IMG/VR virus record: IMGVR_UViG_3300009068_002792
Coordinates: 1 to 55,569 of that record
Length of the DNA stretch: 55,569 nt
Reading direction: 5' to 3' (one strand)
Origin: a virus
Taxonomy: Duplodnaviria; Caudoviricetes
Shown here: piece after piece, positions 7,693 through 49,597 of the stretch
How positions within the stretch are numbered: position 1 is the stretch's first letter
Layout of the letters: each line of letters begins with the position of its first letter
Position numbers and translations under genes: made by a program
Notes under the pieces: generated by a model
Told to the model about the DNA's origin: nothing
The model's database searches: none
Seen by the model: only the letters and a program-made list of their open reading frames with translations

Positions 7693-8531
7693 TTTATGTT
7701 TAAATAATAATCTCTATAGTTTTGAAATTCATTTATCTTCTTGGGATAATGAAATCCAAAGCTTAATTTATTATTATACTCATTTAATGTGATTGGGTCA
7801 AGTGAAAATTGCATGCATTGTTGGATATTTGCAACTGATCCTTGTTCAAAAATACCATTAATAATATGACTATAAAATAAATCCTCTGCTACTCTTGTTC
7901 CATTTGTGCCATATTCTCTTATTATTGATTTTGAATATCGTCTACTTACTTCTTCGCAAGCAGATCTTAATCTAAAACTAAAGCCTCCATTACCACACCT
8001 GACGCTAGGAAATCCCATGCTTTGCCAATTTCCATTATTATTAATTTCAATGCTTGGACTATGACACCAAGCAGACCCGATATATTTTAATTTATTATTT
8101 AATACGAAACGTTCCCAACCATTTTTAATTAAAAATCCATCTGGATGAAAGAAAAGCAGATTTTCAAATACTTTAGGAAGATACTTCCAAATCTCTTCAA
8201 ACATAAATTGGGAGTATTTATCGTGGCTATCTTGGATTGGTATTTTGATGTGTTCTACTCTAGCATTTTTGTATCTAGGATCATTATTTAATAGATTATT
8301 TGAGTTTGGGCTAAATATAAAAATAGGATAATTATATTCAGAAAAATTCTTAAAACTATGGACTACAGAAAAATCTTCTATAGCATTTATATCTCTATCT
8401 CTGCCTTCAAAATAAATACCACAAAAACTATCTGATTGTTGTTTGATATCTAAATTTGAAGTTAATGTATCAAAACAAATTTTACCAAGAACTTCTAAAT
8501 CTTCTTGATTTTTTTTATTTATAAAATTCAT
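7689..8531 (-). CDS. DUF5672-like glycosyltransferase-related protein
   Basis: HPDGFLI, YIGSAW, GNGGFSFR, AEDLFY, FGFH motifs. Confidence 0.75.
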   Translation of the reverse strand: MNFINKKNQEDLEVLGKICFDTLTSNLDIKQQSDSFCGIYFEGRDRDINAIEDFSVVHSFKNFSEYNYPIFIFSPNSNNLLNNDPRYKNARVEHIKIPIQDSHDKYSQFMFEEIWKYLPKVFENLLFFHPDGFLIKNGWERFVLNNKLKYIGSAWCHSPSIEINNNGNWQSMGFPSVRCGNGGFSFRLRSACEEVSRRYSKSIIREYGTNGTRVAEDLFYSHIINGIFEQGSVANIQQCMQFSLDPITLNEYNNKLSFGFHYPKKINEFQNYRDYYLNIK

Positions 8532-34358: not shown

Positions 34359-34985
34359 TTAAATTTTCTTATTATTTCTATCTGAAATTGATTCACCAAA
34401 AGTAAAAGGAAGAACTATTGGTCTATAAATTTTTAAATTTACAGATTCAATTGTAAGTTTTAATATATTTTCAGTCATCCAACTATCAGGACCTTCTTTA
34501 GGAAAAAAAAATAAATTCCTCCAAGCATTTTGAAGGAATTTTGTTTTATGTATAATTGGCATATATATTACTGCGTGTGACCCAAAGAATGGTTTGTCTA
34601 CTTGAGTCCAAGATTGTATTCTTTCTGGCAGTTCCCATCCTATAGCGCTTCCCCAAGGATGATCGCCTCCTCCAAGTAATATGATTCCACAATCTTCTGG
34701 CGGATTGCCTAAAGATAAAAATTGTTTATATTTTTGTTTATCAATAACAGCATCATCCTCAAGAACAAGAAGTGGTTTATCTGTATTTGATTTTTCTACT
34801 GCCATTAAATGCGAAGCTGAACATCCTGCGCCAAAATTACAATTCTCATTTGGCATATTCGCATTCTTTGCTGTGATTGCATCTAATATTTTTATTCTAA
34901 TAAAATAATCTTTAATATCATCAATGAATTTTTGCCTATCAGTTCTTTCTGGTCTATGTATAATTGTTGGGATTAAATTTTTCAT
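34359..34985 (-). CDS. Glycosyltransferase family 25-like
   Basis: R.DR, GCSASH, LVLEDDA, GSHA..Y. Confidence 0.7.
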   Translation of the reverse strand: MKNLIPTIIHRPERTDRQKFIDDIKDYFIRIKILDAITAKNANMPNENCNFGAGCSASHLMAVEKSNTDKPLLVLEDDAVIDKQKYKQFLSLGNPPEDCGIILLGGGDHPWGSAIGWELPERIQSWTQVDKPFFGSHAVIYMPIIHKTKFLQNAWRNLFFFPKEGPDSWMTENILKLTIESVNLKIYRPIVLPFTFGESISDRNNKKI

Positions 34986-35533: not shown

Positions 35534-35599
35534 ATTAAGATCATACATGATACTGATCTAATTGTCTAATAAAAATGCAGACAGAGGGATTCGTTTACT

Positions 35600-35989
35600 T
35601 GGACCCGGAAGGAGTTGAACCTTCGTGTTTTAAAAATCTAAATTAAAATACTACAAGTTTAGTTCTTTTTGTTTTTTAGCTTTGTATAGATATAAGAACA
35701 AACATACTCAGCGTATTCTATCTTGAATATTATTACTTAAAGAACAGAAAAACTATTAAATAATAAACATCTAATTACGCAATATTCCAGTAGATGCGTC
35801 GTGGATATCACGCTGTAGAACTTAGGCTACAGAAGCGGTCATCTCAACAAGAGAAACTCTTGCAGAAATATGACCTTTATATTTTGCTGTTTTGGCAGTT
35901 AATATAAATGAAACTTTTTTAGGAGTCCTCGATTCAACCTCCACTTGCATTTTAATTTATTTTCTTAAAATCGAAACCAGTACGGGCCA
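35600..35989 (-). ncRNA. ssrA: tmRNA (one-piece)
   Basis: 5' TGGCCCGTACTGGTTTCGA, TGCAAGT...ACTTGTA P2 pairing, resume context TAACT-GCC, tag AKTAKYKGHISARVSLVEMTASVA*, T-arm GAAGG-TTCAACT-CCTTC, 3' CGGGTCCA with G3-U70. Confidence 0.92.
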
Positions 35990-36082: not shown

Positions 36083-36514
36083 ATGTATACTGTAGAAAAA
36101 ATTCATAAATACTTAAGGGTTTTAGTAGGAGTGGATGAATCATTTCAAATTCTTACGAAAAATTTTCCAGATTTATTAGAGGATCTTGTATCTGCAAAAA
36201 ATAGTTCATCTTGTTCTTGCAATGATAGAGTAATACAAGGTTTGACACAAAAATATCAAGAGAATGACGAAGCAAGAATGATAATTGATGATATATTTTC
36301 TAGAGTAAAAATTGTTAAAGCTATAAAAGCTTGGGATGAAATGATGGAAGGATTGGAAAATCAAGAGAAAGAAATTTTTGAAAAAGTACATAAAGTAGGC
36401 AAAACAAGCGAAGATTGGAAAGCTTTCCGCAAAATGGTGAAAGCTTCAAGTGTAAATATTCAAGGGTTTTCTGTGATAGAAAAGAAAGATAGACTTGAAG
36501 TAAGATTCATTTAA
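36083..36514 (+). CDS. Hypothetical protein
   Basis: 143 aa ORF with a CSC motif. Confidence 0.7.
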   Translation: MYTVEKIHKYLRVLVGVDESFQILTKNFPDLLEDLVSAKNSSSCSCNDRVIQGLTQKYQENDEARMIIDDIFSRVKIVKAIKAWDEMMEGLENQEKEIFEKVHKVGKTSEDWKAFRKMVKASSVNIQGFSVIEKKDRLEVRFI

Positions 36515-36707
36515 GTTTTTCAGCGTCTCGTTTATAAACGAAATTAAATTTAACTCTTGCGCCATTAATATCTGAAATTAATTGAGGTATGGCGATACAT
36601 GGATACTCGTTTGGTTCATCATAAATATTCTCATTAGAGATATTATAATGCTTTACGCACTTACTAGCGTAAACTGTCCATCTGGCTTTATTTTTAATAA
36701 TTTCCAT
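36507..36707 (-). CDS. Hypothetical protein
   Basis: 66 aa ORF with P.EYPCIA motif. Confidence 0.6.
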   Translation of the reverse strand: MEIIKNKARWTVYASKCVKHYNISNENIYDEPNEYPCIAIPQLISDINGARVKFNFVYKRDAEKLK

Positions 36708-36729: not shown

Positions 36730-36758
36730 TTGACAAAAAAGCAAACTTAATATAATAT
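36730..36758 (+). promoter_or_regulatory. sigma70-type promoter pointing into a non-coding region
   Basis: TTGACA-17 nt-TAATAT with no credible plus-strand ORF downstream. Confidence 0.6.
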
Positions 36759-36764
36759 AAGTTA

Positions 36765-37072
36765 ACATAGTTCCCAATTAGAGCAGTTTGTTGATGTCAA
36801 AAAATCAACTATCAATCCTTGAGATAGCAACGTCCCAAGGGCTGACGACTATTAAAACCTTTATATGTACATTATATGGCTAATAAAGGGAATGTAGCTA
36901 TAGGCATCGCAGAATGTAGTGATCGAAGCTACCTCTGATCCGTAAGTGCGATGGCCCGTTTACTGCTGAGATCGCAGTAAAATTTGGAGTCAAAAGAAAA
37001 GTTGGATTGATAATACTTAACTTCGGATATATTACATCTGGAGGTAAAGCCCTTTTGGATATCAAAGAAAAG
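36765..37072 (+). ncRNA. Candidate structured ncRNA of unrecognised family
   Basis: GC-enriched relative to its flanks, with multiple hairpins and long-range helices (see findings); lies downstream of a promoter. Confidence 0.6.
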
Positions 37073-37100
37073 TTATAATAATAAGAATACAATACTATAA

Positions 37101-37439
37101 TTAGTTCTTATTATTTTTATTAAAATGATTCTGTATTATATCAAAGTTACGATCTAATTTAGCTTCTATTCTATCAAAGTAATCATCAAAAGATTCTTTA
37201 GTTACATAAGTAGTTGAAATTTTTAATGCTAAATCTGAAATTTCTTGTTGATGTTTTCTACTTTCTGATTCCATTTCTTTTCTTAAAGTTATGAAGTCAC
37301 TAAAAGTTTTGTCGTTAATTTCTTTCATAAGATTCTCTTGTTTATCAAAAAGTGAGAATACTCTAGTAAATAACCATCCTCCAAGAAAGGATAGCGCTCC
37401 TAAAATCAAATTAAATAATAGTGTAATATCTAAATTCAC
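37101..37439 (-). CDS. Single-TM coiled-coil protein (holin/anti-holin-like architecture)
   Basis: N-terminal TM, ..TYVTKESF...FDRIEAKLD; GTGTAA 8 nt upstream. Confidence 0.6.
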   Translation of the reverse strand: MNLDITLLFNLILGALSFLGGWLFTRVFSLFDKQENLMKEINDKTFSDFITLRKEMESESRKHQQEISDLALKISTTYVTKESFDDYFDRIEAKLDRNFDIIQNHFNKNNKN

Positions 37440-37468: not shown

Positions 37469-38533
37469 TTATAGTTTTAAATCACCAAAATCATCATCAG
37501 AGATATCAGTTTTCCTTGCTCCGACCTTATAACTGGATATCTCTGTTTCTTGAGGAGCTACTTGAACTTTACTGCTATCTAGATAACTATCAAGCCAGCC
37601 AGCGATAGGATTATCCTTTTGATTAAAGATTTTCTTATAACCAAGGCTTCTGAGTCTAGAATCGCATAACCATTTAGAGTAACCATCGAGAACTTCTGCA
37701 TTCAAACCAAGTAAATTACCTTTACTAAATAGATATTTAGACCATTCGCTTTCATTTTTAGCTGCTTGTTCATAAAAAGCGTATATCTTGTCTTCGCTTT
37801 TCTTAACGATAGAAGTAAAACCTTCTTTATCTTCGTCTCTCAAAATTTTAAGTAAGTTTTGACTGACGGCAAAATGAAGTGCTTCATCTCTTTGAATAAA
37901 TTTAATAATTTTTGAATTACCTTCCATCTTACCACGATATCCAAAATAAAAAGAGCAAGCGAATGAAACATAAAATACAAGACCTTCCATTACATTAATA
38001 GAAAGAATAGCATCAAAAATCTTTTGTTTAGGATCTTTCTTTTCATCATCACCAAGAATTTTATCAAAGTTATTTCTAATTAACTCGGCGCGACTTGTAA
38101 TTTCTTTATCTTCCATAATACTATCAAAGAATTTAGTTGGGTCTGGATAAACATTATTTAATAGATAAGAATAAGAATAACTATGAATGCCTTCAAATTG
38201 AGCCCAAGTATTCATGCAAATTTCAAGTTCTGGATTACTCACATAATCTTTAAGAGAATGAATACTACGAGAAAGCATACTATCTCCAAGAGTTTGAAAT
38301 CTTAAATTACTATCAAATACAAATCTTTCTGTATCTGTTAAATTTTTATAATCGCTTCTATCTTTACCTAAAGCAATTTCATGTGGCCACCAGAAATTTT
38401 CATTTTGCTTTTTAAACAATTCAAAAAATATAGGATATTTAAAACGATCATATCTTTGTAGATTAAGATCTTCACCAAGAAATAATGGTTGTTTAGTAGT
38501 ATCTACATTTTTAAAATTTAAAACTGTTTTCAT
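37469..38533 (-). CDS. nrdB: Ribonucleotide reductase class Ia beta subunit
   Basis: FWWPHE, QTLGDS, FEGIHSYSY (E, H, radical Tyr), EGLVFYVSFACSF, RDEALH, VQVAPQETE. Confidence 0.96.
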   Translation of the reverse strand: MKTVLNFKNVDTTKQPLFLGEDLNLQRYDRFKYPIFFELFKKQNENFWWPHEIALGKDRSDYKNLTDTERFVFDSNLRFQTLGDSMLSRSIHSLKDYVSNPELEICMNTWAQFEGIHSYSYSYLLNNVYPDPTKFFDSIMEDKEITSRAELIRNNFDKILGDDEKKDPKQKIFDAILSINVMEGLVFYVSFACSFYFGYRGKMEGNSKIIKFIQRDEALHFAVSQNLLKILRDEDKEGFTSIVKKSEDKIYAFYEQAAKNESEWSKYLFSKGNLLGLNAEVLDGYSKWLCDSRLRSLGYKKIFNQKDNPIAGWLDSYLDSSKVQVAPQETEISSYKVGARKTDISDDDFGDLKL

Positions 38534-38536
38534 GGA

Positions 38537-40792
38537 CTATAATTTACACGCTCCACTTGAACAATCTCTATCTTCTTTTTGATTAAGTGATTGTTCTTTA
38601 TCTCCATCATCAGTATTATTATAATACAAACTAATTAAACCAAGGCTATATGCATACATTAGCTCTTTCATTACTTTAGCATCTGGTAATACATTGTTTT
38701 CATAATGACTATAATTGTAGTATACATTAGTTGATATGGCCATGTCAATATATTTTTGAATAACTGCATTAATTTTTAATAATCCAGTATTATCTTTAAG
38801 ATCATATGCTAGTTCATAATTTTCATCATACTTTCCAATTCCCGGAACTAGTACTGGTAGCTTGCCCATTTTGCTAGTTTTATAAGTAATAAGACTACGA
38901 ATTGGTTCAACTCCATTTGTTGATGATTGAATTACAGAACTACTTTCGCAAGGCATACAAGAAGATAATGTAGAATGTCTTAATCCAAATTCTTTGATAT
39001 CTTTTCTTAACTTATCCCAATCAAGAGATAATTTTCTTTTTACAATTTCATCAATCTTATTTTTGTAAGTATCAATTGGAAGAATGCCTTTAGAATATTT
39101 AGTATGATTAAATTTTTCGCACTTGCCTTTTTCTTTAGCTAATTCAACGCTACTTTTTAAGAGATAGTATTGAAAATGTTCCATCCATTCATCTATAATA
39201 TTTAATGATTTATCTGATGAATATTTTAATTCATTTTTAGCAAGAAAAGCTGCAAGATTAGTAATTCCAATCCCAAGGCTTCTACGTTTTTTAGCAAAAT
39301 TTTCAGCAGCAACATTAAAGTAATCTTGAAGTTCAATGATTTCATCAAGAAATCTTACGATAAGATCGCAAGTCTTTTCAAGATCTTGCCAGTTTTTTAT
39401 TTCTAGCATATTTACTGCCGAAAGAATACACATTCCAATTTCACCATCTTTATCGTGATAATCATTCAATGGAATGGTTGGATGAATAACTTCTGTGCAA
39501 AGATTACTCATAGTAACTTTATCAGACCAAGCTCCGTGTTCATTAGCATGATCTACATTAAGAATATAAATACGACCAGTTTCGACTCTTTCTTTAACTA
39601 TGAGAGAAAATAATTTACGAGCAGATACTTTCTTTTTAAGTTTTAGTTTCTTAGATTCACATTCCTTGTATACTTTATCAAAGTCTTTTGTTCCCCATGC
39701 TTCATAAAGTTCTGGAACTTCTGCATTATTAAATAGAGTAATATCTTCGTCTTTCAATACTCTATCGTAAAATAGTTTACTCATACCAACTGTATAATCA
39801 AGTTTGCGAACTCTGTTATCATCTGTTCCAGCGTTGTTCTTTAATACAACGACATCTTCAATCTCATAATGCCACCATTGAATATTACAAGTTGCGCTTC
39901 CACCTCGTAATCCATTTTGTTGCCAAGCTTTTACGCTACTTTCATAGATTTTTAAAAATGGAATTAAGCCAGTATGAACAACTTCGCCATTCTTAATAGG
40001 AGAACCAATAGCTCTGATTTTACTTATATCAATGCCAATTCCACATCTATTAGCAGTAGCCATACTAACAGCAGTAGCACTAGCTGTAATACTATCTTTA
40101 GTATCATCAACCCCAATCAAACAGCAACTAGCATAATTTCTACTTGAAGTTCTAACTCCTGCCATTACTGGAGTTGGTAAATTAATTTTATGCTTGCTAA
40201 TAGCATCGTAAAATTTTCTTACATAAGATAGTCTTGTCTCTACTGGATATTTAGCAAAAGCATATGCAGCAATTAATATATAAGCAAATTGTGGTGTTTC
40301 GTAAATCTTTCCAGTCACTCTATCTTTAATAAGATATTTATCGCATAATTGTTTTATACCAGCATATGTAAAATTATAATCTCTTTCGTGATCAATAAAT
40401 TCACCAAGTTTATTTATTTCATCTTCAGAATAATTTTCTAAAATAATAGGATCATATACTTTGTTCTTGATTCCTTGAGTTAAGAATTCTGATAGTCTTG
40501 GAGCATGTTTGCCTTTCCAAACATCTTTTCTTAATTGATAATTTAATAATCTTCCAGCAACAAATTGATAATTTGGTTTTTCAACAGAAATTAAATTCGC
40601 AGCACTTTCAATTAATAGATTATGAATTTCTTTTGTGGTAATACCTTCGTGAATATTTATTTTAGCGTTAATCTCAACATCAGTAAGACTTACATCACTC
40701 AAATCATTAACAGCCCATTCAATTACTTTGTTTATTTTTTCTATATTAAACTTTTCAGATGATCCATTTCTTTTTTTAATTTTTATATTCAT
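38537..40792 (-). CDS. nrdA: Ribonucleotide reductase class Ia alpha subunit with ATP cone
   Basis: IKKRNG ATP cone, YETPQ, PTPVMAG, SCCL, QNGLRGGSA, SNLCTE, MPCESSS, SLYY, C-terminal CSSGAC. Confidence 0.97.
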   Translation of the reverse strand: MNIKIKKRNGSSEKFNIEKINKVIEWAVNDLSDVSLTDVEINAKINIHEGITTKEIHNLLIESAANLISVEKPNYQFVAGRLLNYQLRKDVWKGKHAPRLSEFLTQGIKNKVYDPIILENYSEDEINKLGEFIDHERDYNFTYAGIKQLCDKYLIKDRVTGKIYETPQFAYILIAAYAFAKYPVETRLSYVRKFYDAISKHKINLPTPVMAGVRTSSRNYASCCLIGVDDTKDSITASATAVSMATANRCGIGIDISKIRAIGSPIKNGEVVHTGLIPFLKIYESSVKAWQQNGLRGGSATCNIQWWHYEIEDVVVLKNNAGTDDNRVRKLDYTVGMSKLFYDRVLKDEDITLFNNAEVPELYEAWGTKDFDKVYKECESKKLKLKKKVSARKLFSLIVKERVETGRIYILNVDHANEHGAWSDKVTMSNLCTEVIHPTIPLNDYHDKDGEIGMCILSAVNMLEIKNWQDLEKTCDLIVRFLDEIIELQDYFNVAAENFAKKRRSLGIGITNLAAFLAKNELKYSSDKSLNIIDEWMEHFQYYLLKSSVELAKEKGKCEKFNHTKYSKGILPIDTYKNKIDEIVKRKLSLDWDKLRKDIKEFGLRHSTLSSCMPCESSSVIQSSTNGVEPIRSLITYKTSKMGKLPVLVPGIGKYDENYELAYDLKDNTGLLKINAVIQKYIDMAISTNVYYNYSHYENNVLPDAKVMKELMYAYSLGLISLYYNNTDDGDKEQSLNQKEDRDCSSGACKL

Positions 40793-40873
40793 ACTTCAAT
40801 GTAACTAGTGTGAATCTTATATTACATTGATTTTGTTCTTCTGGAAAGAAAAAACCAGAAACTTACTAACAAT

Positions 40874-41225: not shown

Positions 41226-42317
41226 TTAGCTATTGATGATATTTAGAACATCATTTGCAAATTTTTCAGAGGTAAATTTATCTTGTAATTTTAATCCTTC
41301 AGAATTTAGTTTATTTGATTTAACTCTTTCGATTGCTTTTTCACATCCAGCAATAAATTCTTCATCATCAAATATAAAAATATTACCTTGATTAAATGGT
41401 TGGCCTTTATGAAAAAACATATTGTCTACTGCTTCAATCTTCGAAGAAGGTTCAACAAGAATTGAATTATCTTTATTAGCCCAATCTTTATATGAATGAG
41501 CATTTAAAATAATTGCATGTTTACCGATAGCAACAGAATGAAATTCTGGTAATCCCCAACCTTCTCCACCACTCATTCCAATAATAATATCTGCACTATT
41601 GAGATAATCATTATACATAGCATTTTTAGGCATATGTCCAATAAATGAAATATTAAAATATTGTTTACCCTCTAAAATGGAATTTAGTAAAGCCTTATTA
41701 TCTTCTTCTTTTAAGAATGGATTATAAATAGAACATTGCAAATGATATCTGGAATCATTACCAAATTTCTTAACCCAAGCTTGAATTACTTTCTTATGAT
41801 TTTTCCTTTTCTCTAGCTTACCTACAAGGTTAAAAACTATACGATCATCAGAGAAATATTTCTTTTCTAATCTTTTAAAATTATATTTATCAAAAGCTAA
41901 TGGTAAGAATTCTACATTAGAACATCCAAACATTTTGAATGTGTCAACAGTATAATTAGAAGAAAACAAAACCTTGTCTTGATTCTTAACAATATTTATT
42001 TCTTCTTTAGTAGGATTATCTAATTCATAAAATGAAAGAAGATATCTTTTATTTGATGGTGCGTCCAATGATCCATTTAGATGCCAAAGTTTAAATGCTG
42101 GGTCAGTTCTTTTTATCTTAGAAATAAAATCCGCTGTACGAGCTTGAATGAAATTGAAAAAACCTTCATCCGATTCTTGAGTAGATAGGTCATATCTATC
42201 GCCAATCGGATAAAGGATAAAATCGTTTAAATTTTTTTTATACAACTCTCTTAAAAGAAGAGTTGAAACTTGTCCAAAACTAACAGAGTTTACAGGCAAG
42301 TTTAGAGTGAAACTCAT
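41226..42317 (-). CDS. Glycosyltransferase family 4
   Basis: VGKLEKRKN and SGGEGWGLPEF. Confidence 0.85.
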   Translation of the reverse strand: MSFTLNLPVNSVSFGQVSTLLLRELYKKNLNDFILYPIGDRYDLSTQESDEGFFNFIQARTADFISKIKRTDPAFKLWHLNGSLDAPSNKRYLLSFYELDNPTKEEINIVKNQDKVLFSSNYTVDTFKMFGCSNVEFLPLAFDKYNFKRLEKKYFSDDRIVFNLVGKLEKRKNHKKVIQAWVKKFGNDSRYHLQCSIYNPFLKEEDNKALLNSILEGKQYFNISFIGHMPKNAMYNDYLNSADIIIGMSGGEGWGLPEFHSVAIGKHAIILNAHSYKDWANKDNSILVEPSSKIEAVDNMFFHKGQPFNQGNIFIFDDEEFIAGCEKAIERVKSNKLNSEGLKLQDKFTSEKFANDVLNIINS

Positions 42318-48363: not shown

Positions 48364-48627
48364 ATGGAAGAAAATACACAAAATACATCAAATACAGAAG
48401 ATAAGAGAATTGTATTACCAAATAATTCGTATGCCAGAGCAACTCCATTTTCTCCAGTAGTAAGAGTATTACCTAAAATATCAAGAAACTCTTATTGTCC
48501 ACTTAATAATGTTAAATTTAAAAAGTGCTGTGGCGCATCTGGACAAGATTATTGCACAAAGGCTAAAGAAAATCTAGAGAATTATGTCAATGATTTGAGA
48601 ACGAAAGATAATGATAAAAGCAGTTGA
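48364..48627 (+). CDS. SEC-C motif protein
   Basis: KISRNSYCP....KFKKCCG. Confidence 0.65.
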   Translation: MEENTQNTSNTEDKRIVLPNNSYARATPFSPVVRVLPKISRNSYCPLNNVKFKKCCGASGQDYCTKAKENLENYVNDLRTKDNDKSS

Positions 48628-49597
48628 TATTATTTTTGGTTTAGCTTGGGGCGATGAAGGCAAAGGTAAAATAAGTAATGCAATTAGCAAAAACTATGAC
48701 ATTGTTTGTCGTTGGAATGGTGGCCCCAATGCAGGTCACACAGTTTATCTCAATGATAAAAAATATAAAACTCATATTATTCCTTGTGGAGTTTTTCAAA
48801 ATAAACTTAGCGTCATTGGTCCAAATTGCGTTATCAATGTTGATAAATTTTTTGATGAAATAGAGTATTTACAAAAAGAAGGATTTGATACTTCTTTAAT
48901 TAAGGTTAGTCCAAAAGCTCATATTATTACTGAAAGACATATTCAGTATGATCTTAAATTCTTAAAACCTAAACTCGGCACAACTGGTCAAGGAATTGCA
49001 CCAGCTTATTCAGACAAAATGTTACGAGTAGGAAAATTAGCGGGAGATTATATTGATAAAAAATATCTTTGGGATGGAAATCTTGAAGGAGAAATTCTTT
49101 GCGAAGGGGCACAGAGTTTTTGGCTTGATATTAATTATGGTGATTATCCTTACGTTACAAGTAGCGAAACATTACCTTACAATGCTTGCTCTCTTGGCTT
49201 TAGTCCAAAGAAGATCAGAGAAATAATTGGCGTTGCAAAAATTTACGATACAAAAAGTGGAGTCGATCCATTGTTTCCAGAATCTTTATGGCAAGACGAT
49301 GAGCTTAATCAAATTATTGATCTTGGTCAAGAGTATGGTTCAACTACTGGTAGAAAAAGATTAGTAAATTGGTTGAATCTAAATAAATTAAAAGAAGCAG
49401 TTAAAATTTCTGGCGTAACAAAACTCATTATTAATAAATGCGACATCTTACAGAAACTTAACAAATATAAACTTTTCTTAAATCAGAATTTATATAATAC
49501 AAATGATTTTATACAAATGAAAAATATGATAAAAAATTATATAAACGATACAGAATATTGTGAAATAGTATTTTCTGGAAACAAATCAGACATTTAA
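48611..49597 (+). CDS. purA: Adenylosuccinate synthetase (short form)
   Basis: GLAWGDEGKGK, GGPNAGHT, GTTGQGI.PAY.DK, EGAQ, YPYVTSS, EYGSTTGRKR. Confidence 0.95.
   Translation: MIKAVDIIFGLAWGDEGKGKISNAISKNYDIVCRWNGGPNAGHTVYLNDKKYKTHIIPCGVFQNKLSVIGPNCVINVDKFFDEIEYLQKEGFDTSLIKVSPKAHIITERHIQYDLKFLKPKLGTTGQGIAPAYSDKMLRVGKLAGDYIDKKYLWDGNLEGEILCEGAQSFWLDINYGDYPYVTSSETLPYNACSLGFSPKKIREIIGVAKIYDTKSGVDPLFPESLWQDDELNQIIDLGQEYGSTTGRKRLVNWLNLNKLKEAVKISGVTKLIINKCDILQKLNKYKLFLNQNLYNTNDFIQMKNMIKNYINDTEYCEIVFSGNKSDI

Follow-up and report, generated by a model that had tools for sequence, protein, structure and literature searches.

A promoter-led structured RNA gene of uncultured freshwater phages carries two single-stranded elements that change together

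A stand-alone RNA gene behind its own promoter

The phage contig IMGVR_UViG_3300009068_002792 of IMG/VR (55.6 kb, estimated 30% complete, ~29% G+C), whose full 55,569 nucleotides are referred to here as the window, carries a stand-alone non-coding RNA (ncRNA) gene of ~310 nt behind its own strong sigma-70-type promoter. It is a single-copy gene of a lineage of low-G+C phages, uncultured and from fresh water, with genomes of ~170 kb. An initial annotation of the stretch had proposed an undescribed phage ncRNA. The RNA is led by a promoter, conserved, structured with covariation, and absent from Rfam 15 and from the literature searched, which upholds that proposal, and we regard it with great confidence as a genuine, structured and previously undescribed RNA gene.

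The conserved body of the ncRNA occupies 36765–37077 on the plus strand (~310 nt), and the covariance model R1, built from 49 sequences, matches 36762–37082 at 315.8 bits. The TTGACA-17-TAATAT promoter named in the initial annotation was recovered by a promoter scan at 36730–36758 (+; −35 box at 36730–36735, −10 box at 36753–36758). Among the 63 distinct flanks upstream of family members, 62 contain TTGACA together with TAnnnT, and in 61 the two boxes are 17 nt apart. Such a strong promoter fits early transcription by the host polymerase. Both ends of the RNA are putative: the 5′ end is placed from the promoter and the onset of conservation at ACAUAG, ~7 nt behind the −10 box, and the 3′ end where conservation ends, behind the element B described below.

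The stretch is flanked by open reading frames (ORFs) at 36507–36707 (−) and 37101–37439 (−) and is enriched in G+C, as had been noticed before (0.40 at 36800–36999 versus 0.23–0.30 in the flanks). It contains no ORF longer than 64 aa under genetic code 11, 69 aa under code 4 or 100 aa with TAG read as glutamine, and a coding interpretation under either of the latter two was rejected, as no convincing frame opened. No reading frame is conserved: among the 71 distinct homologues, the maximum stop-free stretch measures anywhere between 35 and 98 aa. Indels that separate the clades have lengths not divisible by three. Taken by itself, this one sequence showed no significant folding (z = −1.5 for the plus strand and −2.1 for the minus strand), and the case for a structured RNA therefore rests on its homologues.

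Distribution among uncultured freshwater phages

Using nrdB as an anchor, we took 80 related phage loci, in 52 of which nhmmer detected a homologue of the ncRNA. R1 matches the window and 52 of the 80 loci, 51 times at full length and twice in copies cut by contig ends. A strict sequence pattern drawn from invariant positions, which matches all 51 full-length members, picked out 86 stretches in IMG/VR; R1 was tested on 33 of the 80 listed, namely those on contigs not previously known to carry the ncRNA, and matched every one (33/33). In JGI metagenomes the same pattern found 108 stretches, many of them on the same contigs as in IMG/VR, and R1 matches 71 of the 80 listed. In total, 83 matches gave 71 distinct ncRNA sequences, with a conserved body of 289–330 nt in all members. 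Four of four long records, including a 171,916-bp genome rated complete, hold one copy each.

Among bacterial and archaeal genomes (one per species), the strict pattern found 12 stretches, about as many as its degeneracy had led us to expect, none of which matches R1 at E ≤ 10; a pattern this strict could miss diverged cellular relatives. A blastn search of the stretch against cultured phages gave no match. The nearest nrdB of a cultured phage, that of Pelagibacter phage HTVC008M, is 42% identical, and therefore no host can be named. Shares in the sequencing-run listing were small, at 0.05–0.28 of sampled words.

A conserved core with two pseudoknots

The initial annotation had also proposed that homologues be collected and tested for covariation; homologues were found, and they support the fold. 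The structure comprises ten helices and two pseudoknots, PK1 and PK2. In the main, model-based alignment of 53 sequences (49 distinct), 87.6% of 2,894 cells pair versus 34–49% in six slid controls, 44 of 66 pairs change on both sides, and none of 500 shuffles reaches the covariation score. Neither pseudoknot was part of the aligning model. This alignment fails to match up helices H1, H2, H3, H5 and H9 across the two deep clades, which were therefore counted separately. In clade 2 (22 distinct sequences in a MAFFT alignment unfitted to structure), 96.2% of cells are paired, versus 33–48% when slid, and 24 pairs show changes on both sides. Every helix in clade 1 is 87–100% paired except H5, at 83%; the 87% of H2 is unreliable, its 3′ strand being mislocated, and the clade-1 set held some misaligned rows of subclade 1c.

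RNAalifold, run per clade, returned most nested helices with the same overall layout in each. Applied to the MAFFT alignment of the whole family, it was limited to PK1, H5 and PK2, the clades being misaligned outside these helices. An unbiased column-pair scan was set aside: the division of the family into two clades produced numerous short stacks that were spurious. Many pairs alternate G-C or A-U with G-U (in the main alignment, 178/220 GU:18, 180/218 UG:18 and 10/26 UG:12), and the plus strand is therefore the RNA strand.

The supported helices form a compact core, in which the long-range helix H3 closes a junction of H4, H5, the H6/H6b domain and H8. The fold is locked by PK2, between an upstream strand and the H6b loop, and by PK1, between the H4 loop and the 3′ tail behind H9. 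H3 joins UAUCAAUCC (36810–36818; this and all following helices on the plus strand) to GGAUUGAUA (37004–37012); its 14 pairs in clade 2 are 97.4% paired, 8 of them with both-side changes, and clade 1 gives 91.5% paired and 8 of 9. PK1 pairs AAGGGCU in the H4 loop (36837–36843) with AGCCCUU (37048–37054). All cells of its 6 pairs are paired and 4 pairs change on both sides in the main alignment, its variants include AAGGGCU/AGCCCUU, GGAGCU/AGCUCC, CAGGCU/AGCCUG, AAGACU/AGUCUU and others, and it is the best-supported helix in RNAalifold. A conserved G(U/G)AAAG linker runs from H9 into PK1.

The PK2/H6 domain (36894–36952) combines PK2, in which GUAGCU (36894–36899) pairs with AGCUAC in the H6b loop (36927–36932), with H6 (AUCGCA/UGCGAU, 36906–36911/36947–36952) and H6b (GAUC/GAUC, 36921–36924/36937–36940). 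In the main alignment PK2 is 92% paired with two both-side changes, H6 is 92% paired, and H6b is 98% paired with changes on both sides in three of four pairs; all three are 94–100% paired in clade 2. Of the remaining hairpins, H1 (36770–36784; GUUC/GAGC, loop CCAAUUA) is 91.8% paired in clade 1, where all 4 of its 4 pairs change on both sides, and 83% paired in clade 2 (MAFFT). H2 (36790–36809; GUUGAU/AUCAAC) has five fully paired pairs in clade 2, three with both-side changes, and is found by RNAalifold in both clades. H4 (36825–36851) consists of H4a (UAG/CUA; 100% paired, 2 of 3 pairs changing on both sides), a conserved internal loop CAA/A, and H4b (CGUC/GACG; 2 of 4), as counted in the main alignment. 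H5 (36858–36889; CCUUUAU/AUAAAGG) has both-side changes in 5 of 7 pairs of the main alignment and is 98.5% paired in clade 2, where it is shortened and capped by a GNRA loop. H8 (36959–36981; UUUACUGC/GCAGUAAA) is 96% paired with 6 of 8 in the main alignment, and in clade 2 is a 4-bp stem with a GAAA loop. H9 (37021–37043; CUUCGGAU/AUCUGGAG) is 91.9% paired in clade 1, with 5 of 8, and is shifted in register by 2 nt in clade 2, where its support is weaker (79.5%).

Nine pairings had been drawn in the initial annotation, and all of the strings it quoted lie at the positions it gave. Six are kept: GTTGAT/ATCAAC (H2), CCTTTAT/ATAAAGG (H5), CATCGCA/TGCGATG (H6), TTTACTGC/GCAGTAAA (H8) and the junction-closing TATCAATCC/GGATTGATA (H3), each conserved with compensating changes, and AAGGGCT/AGCCCTT, which is PK1. 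The other three are not conserved. CCTTG/CAAGG is 57% paired; TACCTC/GAGGTA is 76% paired with covariation not above controls; and the inner GTAG/CTAC is 69% paired and clashes with H6b, its CTAC pairing instead with GTAGCT at 36894 to form PK2.

Immediately behind the conserved body, an A+U-rich hairpin followed by a short U run (37077–37118, +; −8.2 kcal/mol, z = −1.5) overlaps the end of the ORF at 37101–37439 (−) and may serve as a weak two-way terminator. It was not reported by the terminator scan and is not kept in the second genomic arrangement described below.

Twin single-stranded elements

Two segments that belong to no supported helix carry the same short sequence. Element A, UCAAAAGAAAAGU (36990–37002, +), lies single-stranded between H8 and the 3′ strand of H3, and element B, UCAAAGAAAAGU (37062–37073, +), lies single-stranded in the 3′ tail. 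Once its extra A is disregarded, element A matches all 12 nt of element B in 68 of the 71 distinct sequences, and one of the three exceptions is a regex parsing error. The two are 66–76 nt apart, mostly 72, the one outlier being a parsing error. Across the 71 sequences the elements occur in nine variants: UCAAAGAAAAGU (the window form), UUAAAGAAAAGU, UCAUUGGGAAGU, UCACUGGGAAGU, and forms ending in ..GGGAAAU, ..GGGAAAA, ..GGGAAGA, ..GGAAAGU and ..GGGAAUU. The single-base changes C>U, U>C, G>A and G>U are shared by both copies. Nine matched variants indicate that both copies changed together, several times. The plain readings are that the elements may be recognised by one partner whose specificity drifts, may be read by the RNA's own core, or may be homogenised by conversion.

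A search for targets of the elements in the window gave chance-level near-matches only. Across four records, an 11-mer search returned the ncRNA's own copy, one exact copy in a 735-aa ORF and one site with one mismatch. Searches for a complement to the elements found no such strand within the RNA and, in three long phage records, no complementary site that covaries with them; a permissive target scan that allowed G-U pairs was too noisy for use.

A conserved ~60-nt leader, ...AAACAAANCAAUUGGGAAAYUUUAAAAARGGAAUA...AUG, precedes two adjacent genes (at 8298 and 8874 on the minus strand of G005:C1, at 9767 in L014 and at 9210 in L016) and contains the clade-2 form of the element. As a partner of the elements this leader was rejected, because clade-1 phages have it unchanged and it therefore fails to covary with the ncRNA element. 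Separately, the H1 loop CCAAUUA (36774–36780) with its flanks, UUCCCAAUU in the window, is complementary to AAUUGGGAA, a string that occurs both in clade-2 twin elements and in the ~60-nt leader. Clades 1a and 2a retain this complementarity (AAUUGGG), clades 1b and 1c retain it in altered form, and clade 2b has lost it; it may be due to chance.

Two genomic arrangements

Family members fall into two arrangements. In type I (the window, clade 1a and clade 1c), the ncRNA diverges from an ORF of 66–83 aa, beyond which, at a few hundred bases, many members have an HNH/EndoVII-like ORF. What lies downstream of it varies: a 110-aa ORF in convergent orientation with nrdB and nrdA behind it, a 171-aa ORF, or a 320-aa ORF. 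The window has the first of these: the 110-aa ORF at 37101–37439 (−), with a weak PHROG 'lipoprotein' match, is followed by nrdB (37469–38533, −) and nrdA (38537–40792, −). The 320-aa ORF, seen in the loci L095 and L155, is on the same strand as the ncRNA and belongs to no known family; in L139 a gene of the IMP dehydrogenase family stands two small ORFs farther downstream on the other strand.

In type II (clades 1b and 2), the ncRNA lies 90–130 nt upstream of nrdA on the same strand. Between them is the nrdA upstream region with the blocks TGTTAnTAAG ... TTTTTCTTT ... TGTAAYAT, and the nrdA of the window keeps the same blocks (region 40793–40873, minus strand) though its ncRNA lies elsewhere. 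The blocks are probably a promoter or operator. Because this region is kept in both arrangements, nrdA has a control region of its own and the ncRNA is a separate unit, which weakens a cis-regulatory reading but does not remove it. Type II loci also have a conserved GTACACT block between the ncRNA and the nrdA upstream blocks.

The proximity to a transfer-messenger RNA (tmRNA) gene pointed out in the initial annotation holds for the window, where the tmRNA (35599–35988, −; 92 bits, tag peptide AKTAKYKGHISARVSLVEMTASVA) lies ~0.8 kb off on the other strand and occupies the gap between the ORF of the 66–83-aa type and the position of the HNH/EndoVII-like ORF. Gene order suggests a nearby tmRNA in window-type relatives as well. 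In the second arrangement the RNA stands just upstream of nrdA instead.

Presence in lake RNA libraries

Metatranscriptome coverage, likewise proposed as a check, was found: assembled contigs of four lake metatranscriptome runs (four studies), taken at at least 85% likeness to the window, cover 36776–37075. Among them are a 445-nt contig and a 201-nt contig that consists of the ncRNA alone, and others bridge the ncRNA into the 110-aa ORF and nrdB. In the same four runs no contig covers 36042–36683. On the tmRNA, contig depth runs into the thousands in one run, although at 85% likeness these contigs may come from other organisms.

Comparison with known RNA families

A scan of the window against Rfam 15 (4227 models), also suggested at the outset, matched no family to the ncRNA: at gathering score only tmRNA and tRNA match. 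At E ≤ 10, the window member and two diverged members (L037 and L042) gave only chance matches (small nucleolar RNA, microRNA, rpsL leader, SymR and CRISPR repeat), at 11–23 bits versus cut-offs of 40–79. The models for RNase P, cobalamin, purine/2′-deoxyguanosine, Intron_gpI, HEARO and GOLLD/ROOL have no match in these three members at E ≤ 10.

No description of the ncRNA was found in the literature search. A 2023 catalogue (PMC10690425) presents 8,495 viral structured-RNA candidates from IMG/VR, 29–151 nt long, and its text does not mention nrd genes; its supplementary alignments may hold fragments of the ncRNA.

Among large phage-borne RNAs, the closest in kind are GOLLD and ROOL, roughly 580–800 nt in size. 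The ncRNA shares with them a stand-alone, promoter-led, complex fold carried by phages, occurrence in lake metagenomes, a function that is unknown and, in the window, a place near a tRNA-like gene, the tmRNA. It differs in having other helices, twin elements that change together and a length of ~310 nt. Membership was rejected, with no model match at E ≤ 10 and a body of 289–330 nt versus a size criterion of 580 nt or more.

In the P4 pseudoknot of RNase P, the CR-I strand lies 5′ of the CR-V strand, flanked by P1/P2/P3. The ncRNA resembles the P3-J3/4-P4 region of bacterial RNase P RNA in the succession of H9, G(G/U)AAAG and a long-range pseudoknot strand with a partner ..GCUU/GCUG, a likeness to the J3/4-P4 consensus. 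In the ncRNA the two strands come in the opposite order: the strand led by GNAAAG (37043–37054) is the 3′ one, and its partner, in the H4 hairpin loop (36837–36843), is the 5′ one. P1/P2 and a specificity domain are also missing from the ncRNA, and RNase P was rejected. A circularly permuted RNase P, which would need junction helices 3′ of the P4-like strand, disagrees with the helix order.

With the cobalamin and 2′-deoxyguanosine riboswitches the ncRNA has in common its place directly upstream of nrdA in clades 1b and 2, its size and its long-range loop pairing. Unlike riboswitches of nrd genes, the ncRNA of the window and of most members of clade 1 does not stand upstream of such genes. A cobalamin riboswitch was rejected: RF00174 does not match at E ≤ 10, the alignments show no conserved box like the GCCACUG of that family, and the nearest B12-box-like string, CCACUAG, sits in a variable stem.

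Other candidates were rejected as follows. The ncRNA is intergenic, has its own promoter in 62 of 63 flanks and has no Intron_gpI match, which speaks against a group I intron. A template RNA of the retron/DRT type would need a reverse transcriptase gene, and PF00078 is absent from the window and five related records, one of them complete. A HEARO/omega RNA would have an IscB or TnpB nuclease gene beside it, but the tested neighbours are a 66-aa ORF, the 110-aa ORF, nrdA/B, glycosyltransferases and a 188-aa HNH/EndoVII-like ORF.

Possible modes of action

Our preferred reading, held tentatively and at somewhat less than even confidence, is that the ncRNA acts in trans as a scaffold and displays one recognition element twice to a partner, as a decoy or within a ribonucleoprotein. 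The downstream neighbours vary and the nrdA promoter region is kept regardless of where the ncRNA stands, and action in trans is therefore favoured over that of a leader of a single gene. The folded core would be a rigid scaffold holding out two single-stranded elements of 12–13 nt, and the two copies would bind two units of one partner, which might be a nucleic acid or an RNA-binding protein, dimeric or cooperative, from phage or host. The ncRNA would then serve as a decoy, a sponge or the RNA component of a ribonucleoprotein, and the joint change of A and B would reflect shifts in the specificity of the partner. On this working model the ncRNA would resemble protein-sponge RNAs (CsrB/RsmZ, and the 6S RNA decoy) in acting in trans through repeated copies of one short element. 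It differs from CsrB/RsmZ in having two copies only and a pseudoknotted core instead of many small hairpins; inspection of the alignments by eye showed the two elements to be single-stranded and not GGA loops as in the Csr/Rsm systems.

Several points weigh against this proposal. No complement that covaries with the elements was found, whether inside the RNA or in the three long phage records. The joint change of A and B could instead be gene conversion or reading by the RNA's own core. The constant position of the type II ncRNA, always 90–130 nt upstream of nrdA on the same strand, leaves room for a role in cis. Contig depth on the ncRNA is about that on nrdB and far below that on the tmRNA, a pattern not expected of an abundant sponge; these RNA-library contigs show presence only and not strand, ends or level, with DNA carry-over possible.

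A cis-acting leader, riboswitch or other sensor controlling the ribonucleotide reductase operon, in line with the switch offered in the initial annotation, is unlikely, because the downstream neighbours vary and nrdA keeps its own promoter region. Such an element would act in sense upstream of nrdA, the position seen in clades 1b and 2, and as read-through antisense where it converges on the operon of the 110-aa ORF, nrdB and nrdA, whose 3′ end it faces in the window and to which some RNA-library contigs bridge it (110-aa and nrdB genes). By eye, the 3′ tail of several members can also form a small hairpin that competes with PK1. Sense and antisense control would, however, have opposite directions. 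Neighbours are different in L095 and L155 (320-aa ORF) and in L139 (IMP dehydrogenase-family gene), and often convergent, and a fixed cis leader was rejected on these grounds, along with the shared nrdA promoter region. No conserved terminator or anti-terminator was found, and no riboswitch model, including cobalamin and purine/2′-deoxyguanosine, matched at E ≤ 10.

Next comes a large ribozyme, likewise improbable, in which the twin elements would be two substrate sites of one catalytic core that cuts, joins or circularises. Two identical sites that change together would suit recognition by one active site, and the size, the two pseudoknots and the many invariant junction and loop nucleotides (for example GCAA.G, GU.G.U..AGG, UAAG.G and AGG.AAAG) are typical of complex tertiary folds. 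However, the alignments show by eye no internal guide complementary to the elements, and cuts at A and B would remove the H3 and PK1 strands and break the fold. No Rfam ribozyme model matched, and the G(G/U)AAAG linker into the pseudoknot strand, which recalls J3/4-P4 of RNase P, comes with the opposite order of P4-like strands and a 5′ strand in a hairpin loop.

Harder still to credit is an RNA-only assembly like ROOL, GOLLD or phi29 pRNA, in which PK1 or the elements would pair between molecules to give rings or cages. PK1 joins a hairpin loop to the 3′ tail, and covariation is blind to whether such pairing is intra- or intermolecular. The twin elements are not self-complementary in clade 1, and the ncRNA is half the size of ROOL or less. 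Homo-oligomers have been reported for large phage-borne RNAs (PMC12286853), a point counted in favour of assembly.

Very unlikely is a diverged member of a described family missed by the models, or a DNA-level or coding feature: Rfam models can overlook very diverged or permuted members and the PMC10690425 catalogue could hold pieces of the ncRNA, but its candidates are 29–151 nt long, three diverse members scanned at E ≤ 10 gave only chance matches far below gathering scores, compensating changes including G-U pairs and an oriented promoter point to a plus-strand RNA, and no reading frame is kept. The remaining probability belongs to none of these mechanisms.

Other features of the window

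The window also encodes a UvsX-like recombinase. A 328-aa ORF at 48611–49597 (+) matches PHROG 1211, '2-aminooxy adenylosuccinate synthetase' (PurZ-like), at E = 9e-68, and the phage may make 2-aminoadenine (Z) DNA. Along positions 1–27000, ORFs follow one another in a long series on the minus strand; the single one tested is an aminotransferase. Glycosyltransferase-like ORFs at 34359–34985 and 41226–42317, which also occur beside the ncRNA in relatives, may belong to a sugar-modification cluster in the window.

Discussion

The family described here is new, but its kind is not: GOLLD and ROOL are earlier examples of large structured RNAs that phages carry and whose role is unknown. Few large RNAs have complex conserved folds, and several of those that do have proved to be ribozymes, ribonucleoprotein cores or self-assembling cages. 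A bolder possibility, which we consider doubtful, is that the ncRNA represents a new class of large phage catalytic or ribonucleoprotein RNA. Its core, with its two pseudoknots, would then read or present a pair of identical single-stranded elements evolving jointly with a partner in phage or host. Such an RNA could be expressed early and take over the host by capturing a dimeric RNA-binding factor of the host, or it could be a ribozyme acting at two matched sites, and either mechanism would be without precedent among phage RNAs.

The ncRNA offers practical assets for further work: a compact length of ~310 nt, more than 70 distinct natural sequences in two deep clades, clean covariation and two pseudoknots. 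It is suited to structure probing, cryo-electron microscopy and pull-down with synthetic RNA, and the exposed pair of co-changing elements points to a testable binding or reaction site. The phages that carry it are an abundant uncultured freshwater group of ~170 kb whose gene content includes a tmRNA, ribonucleotide reductase and a PurZ-like enzyme, and the role of the ncRNA could reveal a new way for such phages to handle their host.

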